The notes under the pieces are model-generated. The model did no database searches. It worked only from the letters and a program-made list of their open reading frames with translations, and was not told the origin of the DNA. Both the position numbers and the translations under genes were made by a program. From Escherichia coli (GTDB lineage: Bacteria > Pseudomonadota > Gammaproteobacteria > Enterobacterales > Enterobacteriaceae), in assembly GCF_016903815.1 (NCBI RefSeq), contig NZ_CP069973.1: 64,000 bases of DNA; one strand, given 5' to 3'. Within the stretch, counting starts at the first letter, position 1. Each line of letters opens with the position of its first letter. Positions 53,422 through 63,907 of this stretch are shown here, piece by piece.

Positions 53422-53697
53422 ATGAAAATAATCTCTAAAATGTTAGTCGGTGCGTTAGCGTTTGCCGTTACCAATGTCTATGCCGCTGAATTGATGACCA
53501 AAGCGGAATTTGAAAAAGTTGAATCGCAATATGAAAAAATAGGTGATATTTCAACCAGTAATGAAATGTCGACTGCAGATGCAAAAGAAGATTTAATCAA
53601 AAAAGCCGATGAAAAAGGGGCTGATGTGTTGGTGCTGACCTCTGGTCAAACTGACAATAAGATTCACGGCACGGCAAATATTTATAAGAAGAAGTAA
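53422..53697 (+). CDS. yahO: Small periplasmic DUF1471 (YhcN-family) protein
   Basis: 91-aa ORF with signal peptide ([21 protein letters not shown]). Confidence 0.8.
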
Positions 53698-53762
53698 TTC
53701 TGAAACCTATGTAAACATCCCCGATGCGTAAGTTTATCGGTGATCATCATCTATTGAAATTT

Positions 53763-53797
53763 ATGCCGGATAAAGCGTTCGCGCTGCATTCGGCAGT
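53763..53797. repeat. REP (repetitive extragenic palindromic) element
   Basis: TGCCGGATAAAGCGTTCGCGCTGCATTCGGCA matches the REP consensus; ends at the prpR stop. Confidence 0.6.
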
Positions 53798-55384
53798 TCA
53801 GTTTTTCAGCCGCCGCCAGAACGTCGTCCGGCTTATGCCTAAATAATTCGCCGCTGCTGTTTTATCGCCTTTAAATTTCTCCAGTGCCTGTTGTGGTGTC
53901 AGTAAGCGTGGAGCGGGAATTTTCGCCGACTCGCGCGCCAGCTCCGGCAGTAGCAGCTGCAAAAACTGCGGCGTTAAATCCGGCGTCGGTTCCACACTTA
54001 AAAACAGCGCCAGTCGCTCCATCATATTGCGCAGTTCTCGAATATTGCCCGGCCAGTCGTAGTGCACCAGCACGGTTTCGCTTGCCTGTAATCCCTGGCG
54101 TAATGCGGAAGAAAACGGGGCAGCAAGTGCAGCCAGAGACACTTTCAAAAAGCTTTCCGCCAGCGGCAGAATATCTGCCACCCGCTCACGCAGTGGTGGC
54201 AGTTGCAGGCGTAAAATGCTCAGCCGATAAAACAGGTCACGGCGAAACTGCCCTTGCCGCATATCTTCTTCCAGATTGCAGTGAGTGGCGCTAATGACTC
54301 GCACATCCACCGGAACAGGCTGATGCCCGCCGACGCGGGTGACCTCTTTTTCTTCCAGCACCCGTAACAGGCGAGTCTGCAAAGGTAGCGGCATTTCGCC
54401 AATCTCATCCAGAAACAGCGTACCGCCGTGGGCAATTTCGAACAGCCCGGCGCGACCTCCGCGTCGCGAGCCGGTGAACGCCCCTTCCTCATAGCCAAAC
54501 AGCTCTGCTTCCAGCAACGATTCGGCAATCGCCCCGCAGTTGACGGCAACAAACGGATGCGACTTTTGGCCCTGTCGCGCATCGTGGCGGGCAAAATATT
54601 CCCGATGAATCGCCTGGGCCGCCAGCTCTTTGCCCGTCCCCGTTTCCCCTTCAATCAACACCGCTGCACTGGAGCGGGCATACAGCAAAATAGTCTGCCG
54701 TACCTGTTCCATCTGTGGTGATTGACCGAGCATATCGCCCAGCACGTAACGAGTACGCAGGGCGTTGCGGGTGGCATCGTGAGTGTTATGGCGTAACGAC
54801 ATGCGCGTCATATCCAGCGCATCGCTGAACGCCTGGCGCACGGTGGCGGCGGAATAGATAAAAATTCCGGTCATTCCGGCTTCTTCTGCCAGATCGGTAA
54901 TCAGCCCCGCGCCGACCACCGCTTCGGTGCCGTTAGCTTTTAGCTCGTTAATCTGCCCGCGTGCGTCTTCCTCGGTAATGTAGCTACGTTGGTCGAGGCG
55001 CAAATTAAAGGTTTTTTGAAACGCCACCAGCGCTGGAATGGTTTCCTGATAAGTGACAACGCCGATAGAAGAGGTGAGTTTTCCGGCTTTTGCCAGTGCC
55101 TGTAACACATCGTAGCCGCTCGGTTTAATCAAAATAACTGGCACTGACAGGCGGCTTTTCAGGTACGCGCCGTTAGAGCCAGCAGCGATGATGGCGTCAC
55201 AGCGTTCGTTTGCCAGTTTTTTGCGGATGTAGGTCACCGCTTTTTCAAAGCCAAGCTGGATAGGGGTAATGTTCGCCAGATGATCAAACTCGAGGCTGAT
55301 ATCGCGAAACAGCTCGAACAGGCGCGTTACAGATACCGTCCAGATAACCGGTTTGTCGTCATTCAGCCGTGGTGGATGTGCCAT
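53798..55384 (-). CDS. prpR: Sigma-54-dependent activator of propionate catabolism
   Basis: 528-aa product from [18 protein letters not shown]+ sigma-54 activator motifs ([13 protein letters not shown]) and C-terminal HTH. Confidence 0.92.
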
Positions 55385-55427
55385 AGCGCACCGCAAAGTT
55401 AAGAAACCGAATATTGGGTTTAGTCTT

Positions 55428-55451
55428 GTTTCATAATTGTTGCAATGAAAC
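55428..55451. promoter_or_regulatory. Dyad GTTTCAT-N10-ATGAAAC upstream of the prpB promoter (candidate PrpR enhancer site)
   Basis: Inverted repeat followed by four more TGAAAC(G) direct repeats at roughly 11-12-bp spacing (55445-55490). Confidence 0.4.
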
Positions 55452-55559
55452 GCGGTGAAACATTGACTGAAACGTTAACTGAAACGCATATTTGCGGATT
55501 ACTTCATGACTTTATTTATAACAAATTGAAATTAAACATTTAATTTTATTCGATCAATT

Positions 55560-55577
55560 GTGGCACACCCCTTGCTT
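55560..55577 (+). promoter_or_regulatory. Sigma-54 (-24/-12) promoter of prpBCDE
   Basis: TGGCAC-N5-TTGCT about 45 bp upstream of the prpB ATG. Confidence 0.75.
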
Positions 55578-55622
55578 TGTCTTTATCAACGCAAATAACA
55601 AGTTGATAACAAAGGATGGGCT

Positions 55623-56513
55623 ATGTCTCTACACTCTCCAGGTAAAGCGTTTCGCGCTGCACTGTCTAAAGAAAATCCATTGCAGATTGTTGGCACCATC
55701 AACGCTAACCATGCGCTGTTGGCGCAGCGTGCCGGATATCAGGCAATTTATCTTTCCGGCGGTGGCGTGGCGGCAGGGTCGCTGGGGCTGCCCGATCTCG
55801 GTATTTCTACCCTTGATGATGTGCTGACCGACATTCGTCGTATCACCGACGTTTGTTCGCTGCCGCTGCTGGTGGATGCGGATATCGGTTTTGGTTCTTC
55901 TGCTTTTAACGTGGCGCGCACCGTGAAATCGATGATTAAAGCCGGTGCGGCAGGACTGCATATTGAAGATCAGGTTGGTGCGAAACGCTGCGGTCATCGT
56001 CCGAACAAAGCGATCGTCTCGAAAGAGGAGATGGTGGATCGGATCCGCGCGGCGGTGGATGCGAAAACCGATCCTGATTTTGTGATCATGGCGCGCACCG
56101 ATGCGCTGGCGGTAGAGGGGCTGGATGCGGCGATTGAGCGTGCGCAGGCCTATGTTGAAGCGGGTGCCGAGATGTTGTTCCCGGAGGCGATTACCGAACT
56201 CGCCATGTACCGCCAGTTTGCCGATGCGGTGCAGGTGCCGATCCTCGCCAACATCACCGAATTTGGCGCAACACCGCTGTTTACCACCGACGAATTACGC
56301 AGCGCCCATGTCGCAATGGCGCTGTACCCACTTTCAGCGTTCCGCGCCATGAACCGCGCCGCTGAGCATGTCTACAACGTCCTGCGTCAGGAAGGGACGC
56401 AGAAAAGCGTCATCGACACCATGCAGACCCGCAACGAGCTGTACGAAAGCATCAACTACTACCAGTACGAAGAGAAGCTCGACGAGCTGTTTGCCCGTAG
56501 CCAGGTGAAATAA
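55623..56513 (+). CDS. prpB: 2-methylisocitrate lyase
   Basis: 296-aa ORF of the PEP-mutase/isocitrate-lyase superfamily (KRCGH motif). Confidence 0.93.
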
Positions 56514-56557
56514 AACACAACGAAAAATATCTCGACCCTACAAATGACGAGGACATC

Positions 56558-57727
56558 ATGAGCGACACAACGATCCTGCAAAACAGTACCCATGTCATTA
56601 AACCGAAAAAATCGGTAGCACTTTCTGGCGTTCCGGCGGGCAATACGGCGCTCTGCACCGTGGGTAAAAGCGGCAATGATTTGCATTACCGCGGCTACGA
56701 CATTCTTGATCTGGCGGAACATTGCGAATTTGAAGAAGTGGCGCATCTGCTGATCCACGGCAAACTGCCGACCCGTGACGAACTCGCCGCTTACAAAACG
56801 AAACTGAAAGCCCTGCGTGGTTTACCAGCTAATGTGCGTACCGTGCTGGAAGCCTTACCGGCGGCGTCGCACCCGATGGATGTTATGCGCACCGGCGTTT
56901 CCGCGCTCGGCTGCACGCTGCCAGAAAAAGAGGGGCATACCGTCTCTGGCGCGCGGGATATTGCCGACAAACTGCTGGCGTCACTTAGCTCGATTCTTCT
57001 CTACTGGTATCACTACAGCCACAACGGCGAACGCATCCAGCCGGAAACCGATGACGACTCCATCGGTGGTCACTTCCTGCATCTGCTGCACGGCGAAAAG
57101 CCATCGCAAAGCTGGGAAAAGGCGATGCATATTTCGCTGGTGCTGTACGCCGAACACGAGTTTAACGCCTCCACCTTTACCAGCCGGGTGATTGCGGGCA
57201 CCGGCTCTGATATGTATTCCGCGATTATTGGCGCGATTGGTGCACTGCGCGGGCCGAAGCACGGCGGGGCGAATGAAGTGTCGCTGGAGATCCAGCAACG
57301 CTACGAAACGCCGGACGAAGCCGAAGCCGATATCCGCAAGCGGGTGGAAAACAAAGAAGTGGTCATTGGTTTTGGTCATCCGGTTTATACCATCGCCGAC
57401 CCGCGTCATCAGGTGATCAAACGTGTGGCGAAGCAGCTCTCGCAGGAAGGCGGCTCGCTGAAGATGTACAACATCGCCGATCGCCTGGAAACGGTGATGT
57501 GGGAGAGCAAAAAGATGTTCCCCAATCTCGACTGGTTCTCCGCTGTTTCCTACAACATGATGGGCGTTCCCACCGAGATGTTCACACCACTGTTTGTTAT
57601 CGCCCGTGTCACTGGCTGGGCGGCGCACATTATCGAACAACGTCAGGACAACAAAATTATCCGTCCTTCCGCCAATTATGTTGGACCGGAAGACCGCCAG
57701 TTTGTCGCGCTGGATAAGCGCCAGTAA
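56558..57727 (+). CDS. prpC: 2-methylcitrate synthase
   Basis: 389-aa citrate-synthase-family ORF (GFGHPVY motif). Confidence 0.93.
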
Positions 57728-57760
57728 ACCTCTACGAATAACAATAAGGAAACGTACCCA

Positions 57761-59212
57761 ATGTCAGCTCAAATCAACAACATCCGCCCGGAATTTGATC
57801 GTGAAATCGTTGATATCGTCGATTACGTGATGAACTACGAAATTAGCTCTAAAGTGGCCTACGACACCGCACATTACTGCCTGCTCGACACGCTCGGCTG
57901 CGGTCTGGAAGCTCTCGAATACCCGGCCTGTAAAAAACTGCTGGGGCCAATTGTTCCTGGCACTGTCGTCCCTAACGGCGTGCGCGTCCCCGGAACTCAG
58001 TTCCAGCTCGACCCCGTCCAGGCGGCATTTAACATTGGCGCGATGATCCGCTGGCTTGATTTCAACGATACCTGGCTGGCGGCGGAGTGGGGCCATCCTT
58101 CCGACAACCTCGGCGGCATTCTGGCAACGGCGGACTGGCTTTCGCGCAACGCGGTCGCCAGCGGCAAAGCGCCGTTGACCATGAAACAGGTGCTGACCGC
58201 AATGATCAAAGCCCATGAAATTCAGGGCTGCATCGCGCTGGAAAACTCCTTTAACCGCGTCGGCCTCGACCACGTTCTGTTAGTGAAAGTGGCTTCCACC
58301 GCCGTGGTCGCCGAAATGCTCGGCCTGACCCGCGAGGAAATCCTCAACGCTGTTTCGCTGGCGTGGGTGGACGGTCAGTCGCTGCGCACCTATCGCCATG
58401 CGCCGAACACCGGCACGCGTAAATCCTGGGCGGCGGGCGATGCCACTTCCCGCGCGGTACGTCTGGCACTGATGGCGAAAACGGGCGAAATGGGTTACCC
58501 GTCAGCCCTGACTGCGCCTGTGTGGGGCTTCTACGACGTCTCCTTCAAAGGTGAATCGTTCCGCTTCCAGCGCCCGTACGGTTCTTACGTCATGGAAAAT
58601 GTGCTGTTCAAAATCTCCTTCCCGGCGGAGTTCCACTCCCAGACGGCAGTTGAAGCAGCGATGACGCTCTATGAACAGATGCAGGCAGCAGGCAAAACGG
58701 CGGCAGATATCGAAAAAGTGACCATTCGCACCCACGAAGCCTGTATTCGCATCATCGACAAAAAAGGGCCGCTCAATAACCCGGCAGACCGCGATCACTG
58801 CATTCAGTACATGGTGGCGATCCCGCTGCTATTCGGGCGCTTAACGGCGGCAGATTACGAGGACAACGTTGCGCAAGATAAACGCATTGACGCCCTGCGC
58901 GAGAAGATCAATTGCTTTGAAGATCCGGCATTTACTGCTGACTACCACGACCCGGAAAAACGCGCCATCGCCAATGCCATAACCCTTGAGTTCACCGACG
59001 GCACGCGATTTGAAGAAGTGGTGGTGGAGTACCCAATTGGTCATGCTCGCCGCCGTCAGGATGGCATTCCGAAGCTGGTCGATAAATTCAAAATCAATCT
59101 CGCGCGCCAGTTCCCGACTCGCCAACAGCAGCGCATTCTGGACGTTTCTCTCGACAGAGCTCGCCTGGAACAGATGCCGGTCAATGAGTATCTCGACCTG
59201 TACGTCATTTAA
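57761..59212 (+). CDS. prpD: 2-methylcitrate dehydratase
   Basis: 483-aa MmgE/PrpD-family ORF. Confidence 0.93.
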
Positions 59213-59251
59213 GCAAACAGCGGTAAGGCGTAAGTTCAACAGGAGAGCATT

Positions 59252-61138
59252 ATGTCTTTTAGCGAATTTTATCAGCGTTCGATTAACGAACCGGAGCAGT
59301 TCTGGGCCGAGCAGGCCCGGCGTATTGACTGGCAGACGCCCTTTACGCAAACGCTCGATCACAGCAATCCGCCGTTTGCCCGTTGGTTTTGTGAAGGCCG
59401 AACCAACTTGTGTCACAACGCTATCGACCGCTGGCTGGAGAAACAGCCAGAGGCGCTGGCGCTGATTGCCGTCTCTTCGGAAACAGAAGAAGAGCGCACC
59501 TTTACCTTTCGTCAGCTGCATGACGAAGTGAACGCGGTGGCCTCAATGTTGCGTTCATTGGGCGTGCAGCGTGGCGATCGGGTGCTGGTGTATATGCCGA
59601 TGATTGCCGAAGCGCATATTACTCTGCTGGCCTGCGCGCGCATTGGCGCTATTCACTCGGTGGTGTTTGGTGGATTTGCCTCGCACAGCGTGGCGGCGCG
59701 AATTGATGATGCTAAACCGGTGCTGATTGTCTCGGCTGATGCCGGAGCGCGCGGTGGCAAAATCATTCCCTATAAAAAATTACTCGACGATGCGATAAGT
59801 CAGGCGCAGCACCAGCCACGCCATGTTTTGCTGGTGGATCGCGGGCTGGCGAAAATGGCACGCGTCAGCGGGCGGGATGTCGATTTCGCGTCGTTGCGCC
59901 ATCAACACATCGGCGCGCGGGTACCGGTGGCGTGGCTGGAATCCAACGAAACCTCCTGCATTCTCTACACCTCCGGCACGACCGGCAAACCTAAAGGCGT
60001 GCAGCGTGACGTTGGCGGATATGCGGTGGCGCTGGCGACCTCGATGGAAACCATTTTTGGCGGCAAAGCGGGCGGTGTGTTCTTTTGTGCTTCGGATATT
60101 GGCTGGGTGGTGGGGCATTCGTATATCGTCTACGCGCCGCTGCTGGCGGGGATGGCGACTATCGTTTACGAAGGATTGCCGACCTGGCCGGACTGCGGTG
60201 TGTGGTGGAAAATCGTCGAGAAATATCAGGTTAGCCGGATGTTCTCAGCGCCGACCGCCATTCGCGTGCTGAAAAAATTCCCTACCGCTGAAATTCGCAA
60301 ACACGATCTCTCGTCGCTGGAAGTGCTCTATCTGGCGGGGGAGCCGCTGGACGAGCCGACCGCCAGTTGGGTGAGCAATACGCTGGATGTGCCGGTCATC
60401 GACAACTACTGGCAGACCGAATCCGGCTGGCCGATTATGGCGATTGCTCGCGGTCTGGACGACAGGCCGACGCGTCTGGGTAGCCCCGGCGTGCCGATGT
60501 ATGGCTATAACGTGCAGTTGCTCAATGAAGTCACCGGCGAACCGTGCGGCGTCAACGAGAAAGGGATGCTGGTGGTGGAAGGGCCGCTGCCGCCGGGGTG
60601 TATTCAGACCATTTGGGGCGACGACGACCGCTTTGTGAAGACGTACTGGTCGCTGTTTTCCCGTCCGGTGTACGCCACTTTTGACTGGGGGATCCGCGAT
60701 GCTGACGGTTATCACTTTATTCTCGGGCGCACTGACGATGTGATTAACGTTGCCGGGCATCGGCTGGGGACGCGCGAGATTGAAGAGAGTATCTCCAGTC
60801 ATCCGGGCGTTGCCGAAGTGGCAGTGGTTGGGGTGAAAGATGCGCTGAAAGGGCAGGTGGCGGTGGCGTTTGTCATTCCGAAAGAGAGCGACAGCCTGGA
60901 AGATCGCGAGGTGGCGCACTCGCAAGAGAAGGCGATTATGGCGCTGGTGGACAGCCAGATTGGCAACTTTGGTCGCCCGGCGCACGTCTGGTTTGTCTCG
61001 CAATTACCGAAAACGCGATCCGGAAAAATGCTGCGCCGCACGATCCAGGCGATTTGCGAAGGACGCGATCCAGGGGATCTGACGACCATTGATGATCCTG
61101 CGTCGTTGGATCAGATCCGCCAGGCGATGGAAGAGTAG
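59252..61138 (+). CDS. prpE: Propionyl-CoA synthetase
   Basis: 628-aa acyl-CoA synthetase (YTSGTTGKPKG AMP-binding motif). Confidence 0.93.
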   Translation: MSFSEFYQRSINEPEQFWAEQARRIDWQTPFTQTLDHSNPPFARWFCEGRTNLCHNAIDRWLEKQPEALALIAVSSETEEERTFTFRQLHDEVNAVASMLRSLGVQRGDRVLVYMPMIAEAHITLLACARIGAIHSVVFGGFASHSVAARIDDAKPVLIVSADAGARGGKIIPYKKLLDDAISQAQHQPRHVLLVDRGLAKMARVSGRDVDFASLRHQHIGARVPVAWLESNETSCILYTSGTTGKPKGVQRDVGGYAVALATSMETIFGGKAGGVFFCASDIGWVVGHSYIVYAPLLAGMATIVYEGLPTWPDCGVWWKIVEKYQVSRMFSAPTAIRVLKKFPTAEIRKHDLSSLEVLYLAGEPLDEPTASWVSNTLDVPVIDNYWQTESGWPIMAIARGLDDRPTRLGSPGVPMYGYNVQLLNEVTGEPCGVNEKGMLVVEGPLPPGCIQTIWGDDDRFVKTYWSLFSRPVYATFDWGIRDADGYHFILGRTDDVINVAGHRLGTREIEESISSHPGVAEVAVVGVKDALKGQVAVAFVIPKESDSLEDREVAHSQEKAIMALVDSQIGNFGRPAHVWFVSQLPKTRSGKMLRRTIQAICEGRDPGDLTTIDDPASLDQIRQAMEE

Positions 61139-61140
61139 GT

Positions 61141-61220
61141 TATTGTCGGATGCGTCGCCTGGCGCATCCGACACCATGCGCCGATGCCTGATGCGACGCT
61201 TACCGCGTCTTATTATGGCT
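61141..61220. repeat. Pair of REP elements (BIME-like) between prpE and codB
   Basis: TGTCGGATGCG-TCGCCTG-GCGCATCCGACA perfect 11-bp hairpin, then GCCTGATGCGACGCTTACCGCGTCTTAT matching the REP consensus. Confidence 0.7.
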
Positions 61221-61374
61221 ACCCACTGTTTTTACACCGATAATTTTTCCCCCACCTTTTTGCATTCATTCATATAAAAAATATATTTCCCCACGAAAAC
61301 GATTGCTTTTTATCTTCAGATGAATAGAATGCGGCGGATTTTTTGGGTTTCAAACAGCAAAAAGGGGGAATTTC

Positions 61375-62634
61375 GTGTCGCAAGATAACAACTTTAGCCA
61401 GGGGCCAGTCCCGCAGTCGGCGCGGAAAGGGGTATTGGCATTGACGTTCGTCATGCTGGGATTAACCTTCTTTTCCGCCAGTATGTGGACCGGCGGCACT
61501 CTCGGAACCGGTCTTAGCTATCATGATTTCTTCCTCGCAGTTCTCATCGGTAATCTTCTCCTCGGTATTTACACTTCATTTCTTGGTTACATTGGCGCAA
61601 AAACCGGCCTGACCACTCATCTTCTTGCTCGCTTCTCGTTTGGTGTTAAAGGCTCATGGCTGCCTTCACTGCTGCTGGGCGGCACTCAGGTCGGCTGGTT
61701 TGGCGTTGGCGTGGCGATGTTTGCTATTCCGGTGGGCAAGGCAACCGGGCTGGATATTAATTTGCTGATTGCCGTCTCCGGTTTACTGATGACCGTCACC
61801 GTCTTCTTTGGCATTTCGGCGCTGACGGTTCTTTCGGTGATTGCAGTTCCGGCTATCGCCTGTCTTGGCGGTTATTCCGTGTGGTTGGCCGTTAACGGCA
61901 TGGGCGGCCTGGACGCATTAAAAGCGGTCGTTCCCGCACAACCGTTAGATTTCAATGTCGCGCTGGCGCTGGTTGTGGGGTCATTTATCAGTGCGGGCAC
62001 GCTCACCGCTGACTTTGTCCGGTTTGGTCGTAATGCCAAACTGGCGGTGCTGGTGGCGATGGTGGCCTTTTTCCTCGGCAACTCGTTGATGTTTATTTTC
62101 GGTGCAGCGGGCGCGGCGGCACTGGGGATGGCGGATATCTCTGATGTGATGATTGCTCAGGGTCTGCTGCTGCCTGCGATTGTGGTGCTGGGGCTGAATA
62201 TCTGGACCACCAACGATAACGCGCTCTATGCGTCGGGCTTAGGTTTCGCCAACATTACCGGGATGTCGAGCAAAACCCTTTCGGTAATCAACGGTATTAT
62301 CGGTACGGTCTGCGCACTATGGCTGTATAACAATTTTGTCGGCTGGCTGACCTTCCTTTCGGCAGCTATTCCTCCGGTAGGGGGCGTGATCATCGCTGAC
62401 TATCTGATGAACCGTCGCCGCTATGAGCACTTTGCGACCACGCGTATGATGAGTGTCAATTGGGTGGCGATTCTGGCGGTCGCCTTGGGGATTGCCGCAG
62501 GCCACTGGTTACCGGGTATTGTTCCGGTCAACGCGGTATTAGGTGGCGCGCTGAGCTATCTGATCCTTAACCCGATTTTGAATCGCAAAACGACGGCTGC
62601 AATGACGCATGTGGAGGCTAACAGTGTCGAATAA
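61375..62634 (+). CDS. codB: Cytosine permease
   Basis: 419-aa polytopic ORF, GTG start after AAGGGGGAA. Confidence 0.93.
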
Positions 62635-63907
62635 CGCTTTACAGACAATTATTAACGCCCGGTTACCCGGCAAAGAGGGGCTGTGGCAGATTCATCTGCT
62701 GGACGGAAAAATCAGCGCCATTGATGCGCAATCCGGGGTGATGCCCGTAACTGAAAACAGCCTGGATGCCGAACAAGGTTTAGTTATACCGCCGTTTGTG
62801 GAGCCACATATTCACCTGGACACCACGCAAACCGCCGGACAACCGAACTGGAATCAGTCCGGCACGCTGTTTGAAGGCATTGAACGCTGGGCCGAGCGCA
62901 AAGCGTTATTAACCCATGACGATGTGAAACAACGCGCCTAGCAAACGCTGAAATGGCAGATTGCCAACGGCATTCAGCATGTGCGTACCCATGTCGATGT
63001 TTCGGATGCAACGCTGACTGCGCTGAAAGCAATGCTGGAAGTGAAGCAGGAAGTCGCGCCGTGGATTGATCTGCAAATCGTCGCCTTCCCGCAGGAAGGG
63101 ATTTTGTCGTATCCCAACGGTGAAGCGTTGCTGGAAGAGGCGTTACGCTTAGGGGCAGATGTAGTGGGGGCGATTCCGCATTTTGAATTTACCCGTGAAT
63201 ACGGCGTGGAGTCGCTGCATAAAACCTTCGCCCTGGCGCAAAAATACGACCGTCTCATCGACGTTCACTGTGATGAGATTGATGACGAACAGTCGCGCTT
63301 TGTCGAAACCGTTGCAGCCCTGGCGCACCGTGAAGGCATGGGCGCGCGAGTCACCGCCAGCCACACCACGGCAATGCACTCCTATAACGGGGCGTATACC
63401 TCACGCCTGTTCCGCTTGCTGAAAATGTCCGGTATTAACTTTGTCGCCAACCCGTTGGTCAATATTCATCTACAAGGACGTTTCGATACGTACCCAAAAC
63501 GTCGCGGCATCACGCGCGTTAAAGAGATGCTGGAGTCCGGCATTAACGTCTGCTTTGGTCACGATGATGTCTTCGATCCGTGGTATCCGCTGGGAACGGC
63601 GAATATGCTGCAAGTGCTGCATATGGGGCTGCATGTTTGCCAGCTGATGGGCTACGGGCAGATTAACGATGGCCTGAATTTAATCACCCACCATAGCGCC
63701 AGGACGTTGAATTTGCAGGATTACGGCATTGCCGCCGGAAACAGCGCCAACCTGATTATCCTGCCGGCTGAAAATGGGTTTGACGCGCTGCGCCGTCAGG
63801 TTCCGGTGCGCTATTCGGTACGTGGCGGTAAGGTGATTGCCAGCACCCAACCAGCACAAACCACCGTATATCTGGAGCAGCCAGAAGCCATCGATTACAA
63901 ACGGTAA
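62624..63907 (+). pseudogene. codA: Cytosine deaminase reading frame interrupted by an in-frame TAG at 62939-62941
   Basis: GTG start overlapping the codB 3' end; frame reads ...[38 protein letters not shown] and then continues to the stop at 63907 (427 codons if read through); [10 protein letters not shown] metal-binding motif lies upstream of the stop. Confidence 0.8.

Follow-up and report, generated by a model that had tools for sequence, protein, structure and literature searches.

What are the hairpins that stand directly downstream of prpR and prpE in the propionate-catabolism locus of Escherichia coli, and do they define the 3' ends of the corresponding mRNAs? The question was examined in a 64,000-nucleotide stretch of DNA, hereafter called the window, from a non-K-12 E. 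coli host (NCBI RefSeq assembly GCF_016903815.1, contig NZ_CP069973.1). The gene order in the window, taken from the open reading frame (ORF) table and the RefSeq annotation of an identical strain, is yahO and prpR, which converge, followed by prpBCDE and codB, both in the forward direction. A preliminary description, made from the sequence alone, had placed repetitive extragenic palindromic (REP) hairpins immediately 3' of prpR and, as a pair, 3' of prpE, and had proposed that they flank the prp locus and stabilize mRNA 3' ends. The analysis reported here shows that the hairpins are ordinary chromosomal REPs: a decayed Y-type element between the convergent genes yahO and prpR (REP A), and a Y/Z2 pair between prpE and codB (REP B and REP C). 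The reading that these hairpins set mRNA 3' ends after Rho termination and trimming is favored with moderate confidence.

REP identity was assessed by formal alignment to the E. coli K-12 Y and Z2 REP consensus sequences (Nunvar et al. 2010, Table 1). Alignments were full-length with gaps allowed and were made at each position on both strands of the window, and the null was provided by 100 dinucleotide-preserving shuffles of the whole window. The per-window shuffle maximum had a mean of 11.3 and a highest value of 18 for the Y consensus, and a mean of 11.6 and a highest value of 15 for the Z2 consensus; the top score in the window outside the REP sites was 12. REP A scored 21 against the Y consensus over its full length and REP C scored 27 against the Z2 consensus, both above every shuffle, and REP B, with a score of 11, was not above chance. 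A covariance model was also trained on 13 distinct REPs drawn from other loci only (the prpB-prpC arrays found in other strains, and the spacers codA-cynR and lacA-lacY), and the window was searched with filters off. Here REP A gave 30.4 bits (E 1.3e-8) and REP C 24.3 bits (E 2.4e-6), and the top background match reached 10.7 bits. REP B was marginal, at 13.8 bits on the - strand (E 0.018) and 12.5 bits on the + strand (E 0.053), and was still the third-best site in the window. In E. coli, REPs are dispersed through the genome in hundreds of copies; beyond REP A, REP B and REP C the covariance model found no further REPs in the 64-kb window.

The features that define the family are distributed unevenly over the three elements. 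REP A and REP C match the Y/Z1/Z2 consensus and REP B taken alone is marginal; folds and covariance-model alignments likewise place the conserved AA/GC bulge of the stem-loop in REP A and REP C and not in REP B. The tetranucleotide GTAG directly abuts the palindrome in one of the three, REP C; REP A has TTAT at this position, and the GTAG of REP B is displaced by 6 nt. All three are extragenic, REP A lying between the stops of yahO and prpR and the other two between prpE and codB, with the GTAG of REP B and the prpE stop codon as the sole coding overlap.

The supplement of Harris et al. 2026 catalogues the K-12 elements REP24 (convergent, 346825-346854, prpR/yahO), REP25 (tandem, 349606-349970, prpB to prpC) and REP26 (tandem, 354600-354770, prpE to codB), and the REP26 annotation begins at the orthologue of REP B. 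Judged by sequence and position, REP A is the orthologue of REP24, and REP B and REP C together are orthologous to part of REP26. The elements are already known under these two names, and since they are already annotated in K-12 no novelty attaches to them; the RepRanger supplements do not mention these genes. Consensus alignment against shuffles, the covariance model and the K-12 annotation thus bear out the REP identity given in the preliminary description, whose gene assignments were correct and whose coordinates agree within 3 nt with those found here (53761-53795, 61144-61173 and 61185-61222). Its placement of the hairpins at the ends of convergent and tandem units also holds: in the prpR mRNA the REP A stem starts 2 nt downstream of the stop codon, and REP B starts at the prpE stop TAG (61136-61138), with its stem beginning 5 nt after that stop.

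Whether these hairpins form mRNA 3' ends can be judged in part from published K-12 data. Term-seq (Adams et al. 2021, eLife) recorded a + strand 3' end at 346858, classed as antisense to prpR, with 1,552 reads in LB at OD 0.4 and 64,659 reads at OD 2.0 (stationary phase); the flanking sequence is ...GCCGGATAAAGCGTTCGCGCTGCATTCGGCAGTTC up to the end and AGC beyond it. Coordinate mapping places this end 4 nt past the REP24 stem, and because it is on the + strand it is the end of the yahO transcript and not that of prpR. The same study reports another REP-associated 3' end similarly few nucleotides past its stem and, in supplementary file 2, a + strand region at 347398, ~540 nt downstream, where Rho termination is sensitive to bicyclomycin. 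In the prpR sense, K-12 has a - strand rut site (346558-346773) 52 bp past REP24 (supplement of Harris et al. 2026). The Term-seq end and the downstream Rho region together fit the published trim-back model, in which termination by Rho further on is followed by exonucleolytic trimming back to a protective hairpin (Dar & Sorek 2018), and they fit the behavior of REP325, for which a dual terminator/stabilizer role has been shown.

On the favored reading, transcription would run through the REPs and Rho would stop it further on, after which 3'-to-5' exonucleases would trim the RNA to the stable REP hairpin and so leave the steady-state 3' end. Such trim-back can be regarded as documented for the + strand at K-12 REP24, that is, for yahO mRNA. 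For prpR mRNA it would occur at the REP A palindrome on the other strand, and for prpBCDE mRNA at REP B and REP C, whose hairpins would probably also attenuate read-through into codB. The REPs are not efficient intrinsic terminators, because no U-tract directly follows the stem: no T-run abuts the full REP stems, and a terminator scan of the window found 12 sites against 11.2 expected, with only weak sub-stem sites inside REP A and REP C. Intrinsic termination by the REPs was dropped as an explanation on account of this chance-level result. The mRNA 3'-end role put forward in the preliminary description is therefore plausible, and it is upheld in part: K-12 mapping gives a strong end 4 nt past the stem, but on the yahO strand of REP24, which alone has direct support, and not on that of prpR.

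Several observations weigh against a general 3'-end role. The mapping of Adams et al. 2021 contains no prpR or prpE 3' end, because the prp genes were not induced in the media used, and it comes from K-12 and not from the strain of the window. The REP A hairpin is weak on prpR-sense RNA (-13.9 kcal/mol, z -2.4): two A·C mismatches there correspond to G·U in the stronger + strand hairpin. REPs between prpB and prpC are missing in ~40% of sampled genomes and the prpE-codB array ranges from 1 to 8 units; since presence and copy number vary in this way among strains, many REP copies must be dispensable. Finally, REPs in 3' intergenic spacers could simply mark where insertions are tolerated.

Table 1. 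Coordinates of the REPs, the mapped RNA end and the genes of the yahO-prp-codB region (window positions).
Feature	Position	Strand	Basis
REP A, single Y-type REP, TTATGCCGGATAAAGCGTTCGCGCTGCATTCGGCA	53761-53795	+	Consensus alignment, covariance model
REP B, atypical Y-derived REP	61135-61173	+	Palindrome, fold, positional homology
REP B-REP C tail-to-tail linker, 11 nt	61174-61184	.	Same Y-to-Z2 spacing in K-12 and other arrays
REP C, Z2-type, inverted, GTAGCCATAATAAGACGCGGTAAGCGTCGCATCAGGCA	61185-61222	-	Consensus alignment, covariance model
Position orthologous to K-12 346858 RNA 3' end; inferred yahO 3' end	53799	+	Term-seq, coordinates mapped
prpR stop codon (TGA)	53798-53800	-	ORF table, sequence, RefSeq annotation of identical strain
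prpB-prpC spacer without REP, 44 nt (empty state of REP25 site)	56514-56557	.	Sequences, REP counts, population sample
Possible decayed Z1-type partner of REP A	53720-53738	-	Weak local alignment
yahO	53422-53697	+	ORF table
prpR	53798-55384	-	ORF table
prpB	55623-56513	+	ORF table
prpC	56558-57727	+	ORF table
prpD	57761-59212	+	ORF table
prpE	59252-61138	+	ORF table
codB	61375-62634	+	ORF table

The individual elements carry traces of their history. The REP A hairpin spans 53764-53795 and keeps the AA/GC bulge, and its RNA has a folding energy of about -14 to -18 kcal/mol whichever strand is taken; against Rfam naRNA4 the element scored 27 bits. A repeat finder with a seed of 6 reported no inverted repeat at REP A, since exact seeds are interrupted there by the bulge and the wobble pairs. 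Over its whole length REP A is identical to K-12 REP24, and all 10 E. coli genomes sampled had the element in identical or near-identical form; the yahO-prpR stretch matches strain 7/2 and others at 100% identity and was found in 5,224 of 5,426 complete genomes. Its head tetranucleotide has decayed from GTAG to TTAT, and since GTAG is indispensable for the TnpA-REP transposase of E. coli, we infer that REP A is an immobile relic fixed in E. coli. One inner stem pair, 53774/53785, records one compensatory change via a wobble intermediate: most Escherichia have G-C there, Escherichia sp. MOD1-EC7003 has G-T and E. coli has A-T. A strand bias of the stem substitutions was also considered, given that G·U on the + (yahO-sense) strand results from four of the five single-sided changes, and was rejected for having too few events.

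A small hairpin, CCGAT...ATCGG (53720-53744), stands 23 nt after the yahO stop and is conserved across Escherichia. Within the window, positions 53720-53738 aligned with a Z1 sequence from a related locus (L036) at 16 of 20 positions; the score of 11 was equalled by 21 of 2000 shuffles and 90 of ~2000 random window stretches, and the covariance model did not detect the site. On this weak alignment, the small hairpin may be a decayed partner REP of REP A.

The palindrome of REP B (61144-61173) has perfect 11-bp arms, TGTCGGATGCG and CGCATCCGACA, in a stem of 11-13 bp. Its GTAG (61135-61138) overlaps the prpE stop TAG and is followed by a 6-nt insertion (GTAGGTTATTGTCGG) before the palindrome, and the bulge has been lost by a change of GATAAG to GATGCG, which puts paired bases in its place; the fold has -24.5 kcal/mol (z -5.0). 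In a comparison with nine other E. coli genomes, strain 536 was found to carry a canonical Y REP at this position, GTAGGTCGGATAAGGCGCTCGCGCCGCATCCGACA, and its sequence after prpE, gaG TAG GTCGGATAAGGCGCTCGCGCCGCATCCGACA, has GTAG overlapping the prpE stop. REP B is counted as a REP because of this positional homology. The form with GTAGG and the 6-nt insertion is common to the window and K-12, and the atypical form is old: it is conserved across the genus, with E. whittamii and E. albertii among the species that have it.

REP C has an intact GTAG (61219-61222 on the - strand) and a fold of -15.7 kcal/mol (z -4.7). From their arrangement, REP B on the + strand and REP C on the - strand constitute one unit of the bacterial interspersed mosaic element 2 (BIME-2) type: Y and Z2 are in opposite orientation with an 11-nt linker, and other strains amplify a unit of ~94 bp. 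Positions 61144-61220 (+) gave 35.2 bits (E 0.002) against Rfam RF02564 (naRNA4, a Y/Z2 pair), and with a gathering score of 59.5 membership of naRNA4 was rejected for the pair, which resembles a Y/Z2 pair nonetheless. Downstream of REP C, the next 118 nt of the + strand are rich in C and poor in G (C/G 1.93), a composition that would be compatible with a rut site. Further downstream, codA is seemingly broken, with ORFs 62609-62941 and 62981-63907 in place of one 427-codon gene (window 62609-63907); in the identical strain 7/2, RefSeq calls codA a pseudogene with an internal stop.

The 3' ends of prpR and prpE were compared in one scan of species-representative genomes with PrpE, which yielded loci (numbered L) from Escherichia, Citrobacter, Salmonella, Kluyvera, Pseudocitrobacter, Pluralibacter, Photorhabdus and others. 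The order yahO-prpR-prpBCDE is conserved in Escherichia, Citrobacter and Salmonella. At the prpR stop, every Escherichia locus has a REP that ends 2 nt from the stop; its head is canonical in E. whittamii and L013 (GTAGGCCGGATA..., with GTAG), nearly so in E. albertii (GTCG), and in E. coli has lost ~10 nt, GTAG included. At the same stop the C. amalonaticus group has Citrobacter-type REPs, with two REPs in the yahO-prpR gap, and the C. freundii complex has a different short hairpin that overlaps the stop. In Salmonella enterica arizonae and diarizonae (L026, L033) the yahO-prpR gap contains a bidirectional intrinsic terminator made of an A-run, a GC stem and a T-run (AAAAATACCCG...CGGGTATTTTTTT). 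After prpE, a REP of the lineage's own type lies within ~15 nt of the stop in six of six Escherichia loci, two of two Salmonella loci and nearly all Citrobacter loci (the Citrobacter-type REPs were assigned by visual inspection, and the covariance model scored only some of them), and classical intrinsic terminators occur in Kluyvera, Pseudocitrobacter and Pluralibacter. A hairpin, either REP or terminator, is always present at both 3' ends, which argues for a 3'-end role over pure neutrality, although the pattern may also mark sites that tolerate insertion.

REP heads also coincide with stop codons. GTAGG spans the prpE stop in E. coli (window 61135-61139) and the prpB stop TAG in 12 of 35 species loci (L017, L022-L028, L030, L032, L033 and L040). 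The Z-type head GTAGGCCTGATAAG holds TAG, TGA and TAA in one frame, and in Citrobacter sp. NCU1 (L019) the prpB reading frame continues into the REP and terminates at this TGA. A separate observation concerns L011 (DXKH01000124.1), a 12-kb contig of the 'Citrobacter sp.' metagenome-assembled genome (MAG) HRGM_Genome_0066. The contig is E. coli-like, with a PrpE ~99.5-100% identical to that of the window and REP B and REP C arranged as in the window; a genuine Citrobacter prp locus is also present in the MAG (L024, 91% identity), and the L011 contig is probably mis-binned.

Variation within E. coli was examined in a sample of 60 genomes taken at even steps from about 5,200. The spacer between prpB and prpC, empty of REPs in the window, is 439 nt long with 8 REPs in K-12 (REP25; L001 4574-5012). 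Across the sample it holds no REP in 24 genomes, ~2 in 14, 4 in one, 6 in five, 8 in 13 and 10 in two, and most strains thus have REPs inside the operon as well. Citrobacter and Salmonella also have REPs there, and for this reason the empty allele may be a secondary loss. The prpE-codB spacer (window 61139-61374) has the single-unit length of the window in 17 of the 60 genomes and two units in 27, and the rest have three to eight units or an interrupted match. Its array grows in ~94-bp steps: the window has 1 unit in 236 nt, and O157:H7 and S1-SRB-02-B have as many as 8 units in 893-900 nt, which gives 2 to 16 REPs among strains.

Insertion sequences (IS) use these arrays as targets. In strain LH09-a (L009 8041-9656), the prpE-codB array has an IS621 of the IS110 family inserted in its last Z2 REP, in the head between GGCCT and AC; IS621 is described as transposing to a specific site in REP sequences, and its insertion in the orthologous array is evidence for REP identity. 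At the same position strain 7_33_80A (L010 8600-8842) reads ...cttatcagtatctacccactacccactg, a sequence that agrees with the right junction of IS621 and resembles the scar that a deletion associated with IS621 would leave. Strain 536 (L007 11536-12884) has a transposase gene of IS1397, an element described as REP/BIME-specific, between codA and lacA, with no cynRTSX annotated between them. The statement that REPs flank the prp locus is right in that REPs stand at both ends, but the arrangement is incidental: the REP types differ, the two ends form no joint unit, and in most strains the operon has internal REPs as well. A reading in which the REPs bound a mobile prp island was rejected, since the end REPs differ in type and are unrelated in orientation; the internal REPs of most strains and the yahO-prpR-prpBCDE synteny across three genera also speak against it.

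Other accounts of the hairpins were weighed against this evidence. They could be translational attenuators, in which case the terminating ribosome would have to melt the hairpin, would stall and be rescued by transfer-messenger RNA (tmRNA), and PrpR and PrpE output would be lowered; this is possible but on balance unlikely, and it may coexist with a 3'-end role. Liang, Rudd & Deutscher 2015 reportedly found that REPs less than 16 nt from a stop down-regulate translation and stall ribosomes, and the stop-to-hairpin distances of 2 nt for REP A at prpR and 5 nt for the REP B stem at prpE both lie within 15 nt. The very stable, perfect stem of REP B, the recurrence of stop-proximal REPs after prpE in three genera and the GTAGG heads across prpB stops point the same way. 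The close spacing may, however, just follow from REPs inserting at, or supplying, TAG stops, and the prpR-sense hairpin of REP A is only moderately stable. It is doubtful that the REPs are neutral passengers, remnants of selfish elements mobilized by REP-associated tyrosine transposases (RAYTs) and kept where insertion was harmless, with incidental RNA effects. Presence and copy number do vary (0-10 REPs between prpB and prpC, 2-16 between prpE and codB), GTAG is lost in REP A and the bulge in REP B, and REP-specific IS elements use these sites. Yet very high read counts place the yahO 3' end precisely at REP24, REP A is fixed across Escherichia with its stem kept by one compensatory change, and where a lineage has no REP at these sites another hairpin takes its place, which suggests that a 3' hairpin is needed.

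A role at the DNA level, in which the Y/Z2 pair would be bound and cleaved by gyrase as a BIME-2 site or would separate the prp and cod units as a topological barrier, is very improbable. BIME-2 elements are bound and cleaved by DNA gyrase. The binding was reportedly described by Espeli and Boccard in 1997. The opposed Y and Z2 members with their 11-nt linkers have the BIME-2 architecture, but a single unit is a minimal array, and recent work found the REP325 array of 12 palindromic units (PUs) to have no chromosome-organizing role, which also speaks against such a function here. That the hairpins are no REPs at all, and instead chance palindromes or ordinary intrinsic terminators, is hardly credible. 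This idea could appeal to the chance-level consensus score of REP B and to the weak terminator sites flagged inside REP A and REP C, but it is refuted for both REP A and REP C by scores above every shuffle and by covariance-model E values of 1e-8 and 2e-6; the terminator scan itself is at chance, no U-tract abuts a full stem, and the K-12 orthologues are annotated as REPs. REP hairpins that set mRNA 3' ends after Rho termination and trimming are thus retained as the preferred explanation.

A wider proposal can be made only as speculation that we consider improbable: that REPs of Escherichia, Citrobacter and Salmonella functionally replaced intrinsic terminators at both prp 3' ends and were selected for stop-proximal placement, with copy number as a heritable dial on the gene ratios of propionate catabolism. 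If true, translation termination, Rho access and 3'-end formation would be coupled, with GTAGG supplying or overlapping TAG stops. The finding itself is correct but ordinary; it matters little beyond correct annotation, and the behavior fits published models. The locus nevertheless offers a natural series, with 0, 2, 4, 6, 8 or 10 REPs between prpB and prpC and 1-8 BIME units after prpE, that could be used to measure the effect of REP dosage on operon polarity. REP24 is a documented case of a mapped 3' end belonging to the gene opposite to the first-guess strand, and the prp stops are an example of REP heads supplying stop codons.

Among catalogued K-12 elements, REP B and REP C match the first PU and a Z2 PU of REP26, which has four PUs (two Y/Z2 units, 329-nt spacer) where the window has two (236-nt spacer); REP25 has eight PUs between prpB and prpC, where the window has none. 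Like members of the BIME-2 family in the classification of Gilson, Bachellier and Hofnung, the pair consists of a Y-derived and a Z2 REP in opposite orientation, tail to tail across 11 nt. It differs in its atypical Y member, with a 6-nt insertion after GTAG and a bulge that is now paired, and it forms one unit, whereas in other strains the ~94-bp unit is amplified up to 8 times. With the REPIN (REP doublets forming hairpins)/RAYT system the elements share GTAG-tagged palindromes of the class recognized by the E. coli RAYT, but REP A has no GTAG, that of REP B is displaced, and only REP C keeps the recognition features. The terminator-type hairpins of relatives are of similar size and likewise stand immediately behind the stop of prpR or prpE. 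They contain no REP sequence, which also holds for the C. freundii-complex hairpin at the prpR stop, and A and U tracts flank the Salmonella yahO-prpR hairpin and the hairpins after prpE in Kluyvera, Pseudocitrobacter and Pluralibacter; unlike REPs, these A/U-tract hairpins would terminate alone. REP325/naRNA4 (RF02564, yjdM-yjdN) has 12 PUs, and the window pair falls below the RF02564 gathering score. The two have a Y/Z2 hairpin pair in common, and the dual role proposed for REP325, partly Rho-dependent attenuation together with protection of the upstream mRNA, is by analogy the same as that which REP B and REP C would play at the end of prpBCDE.

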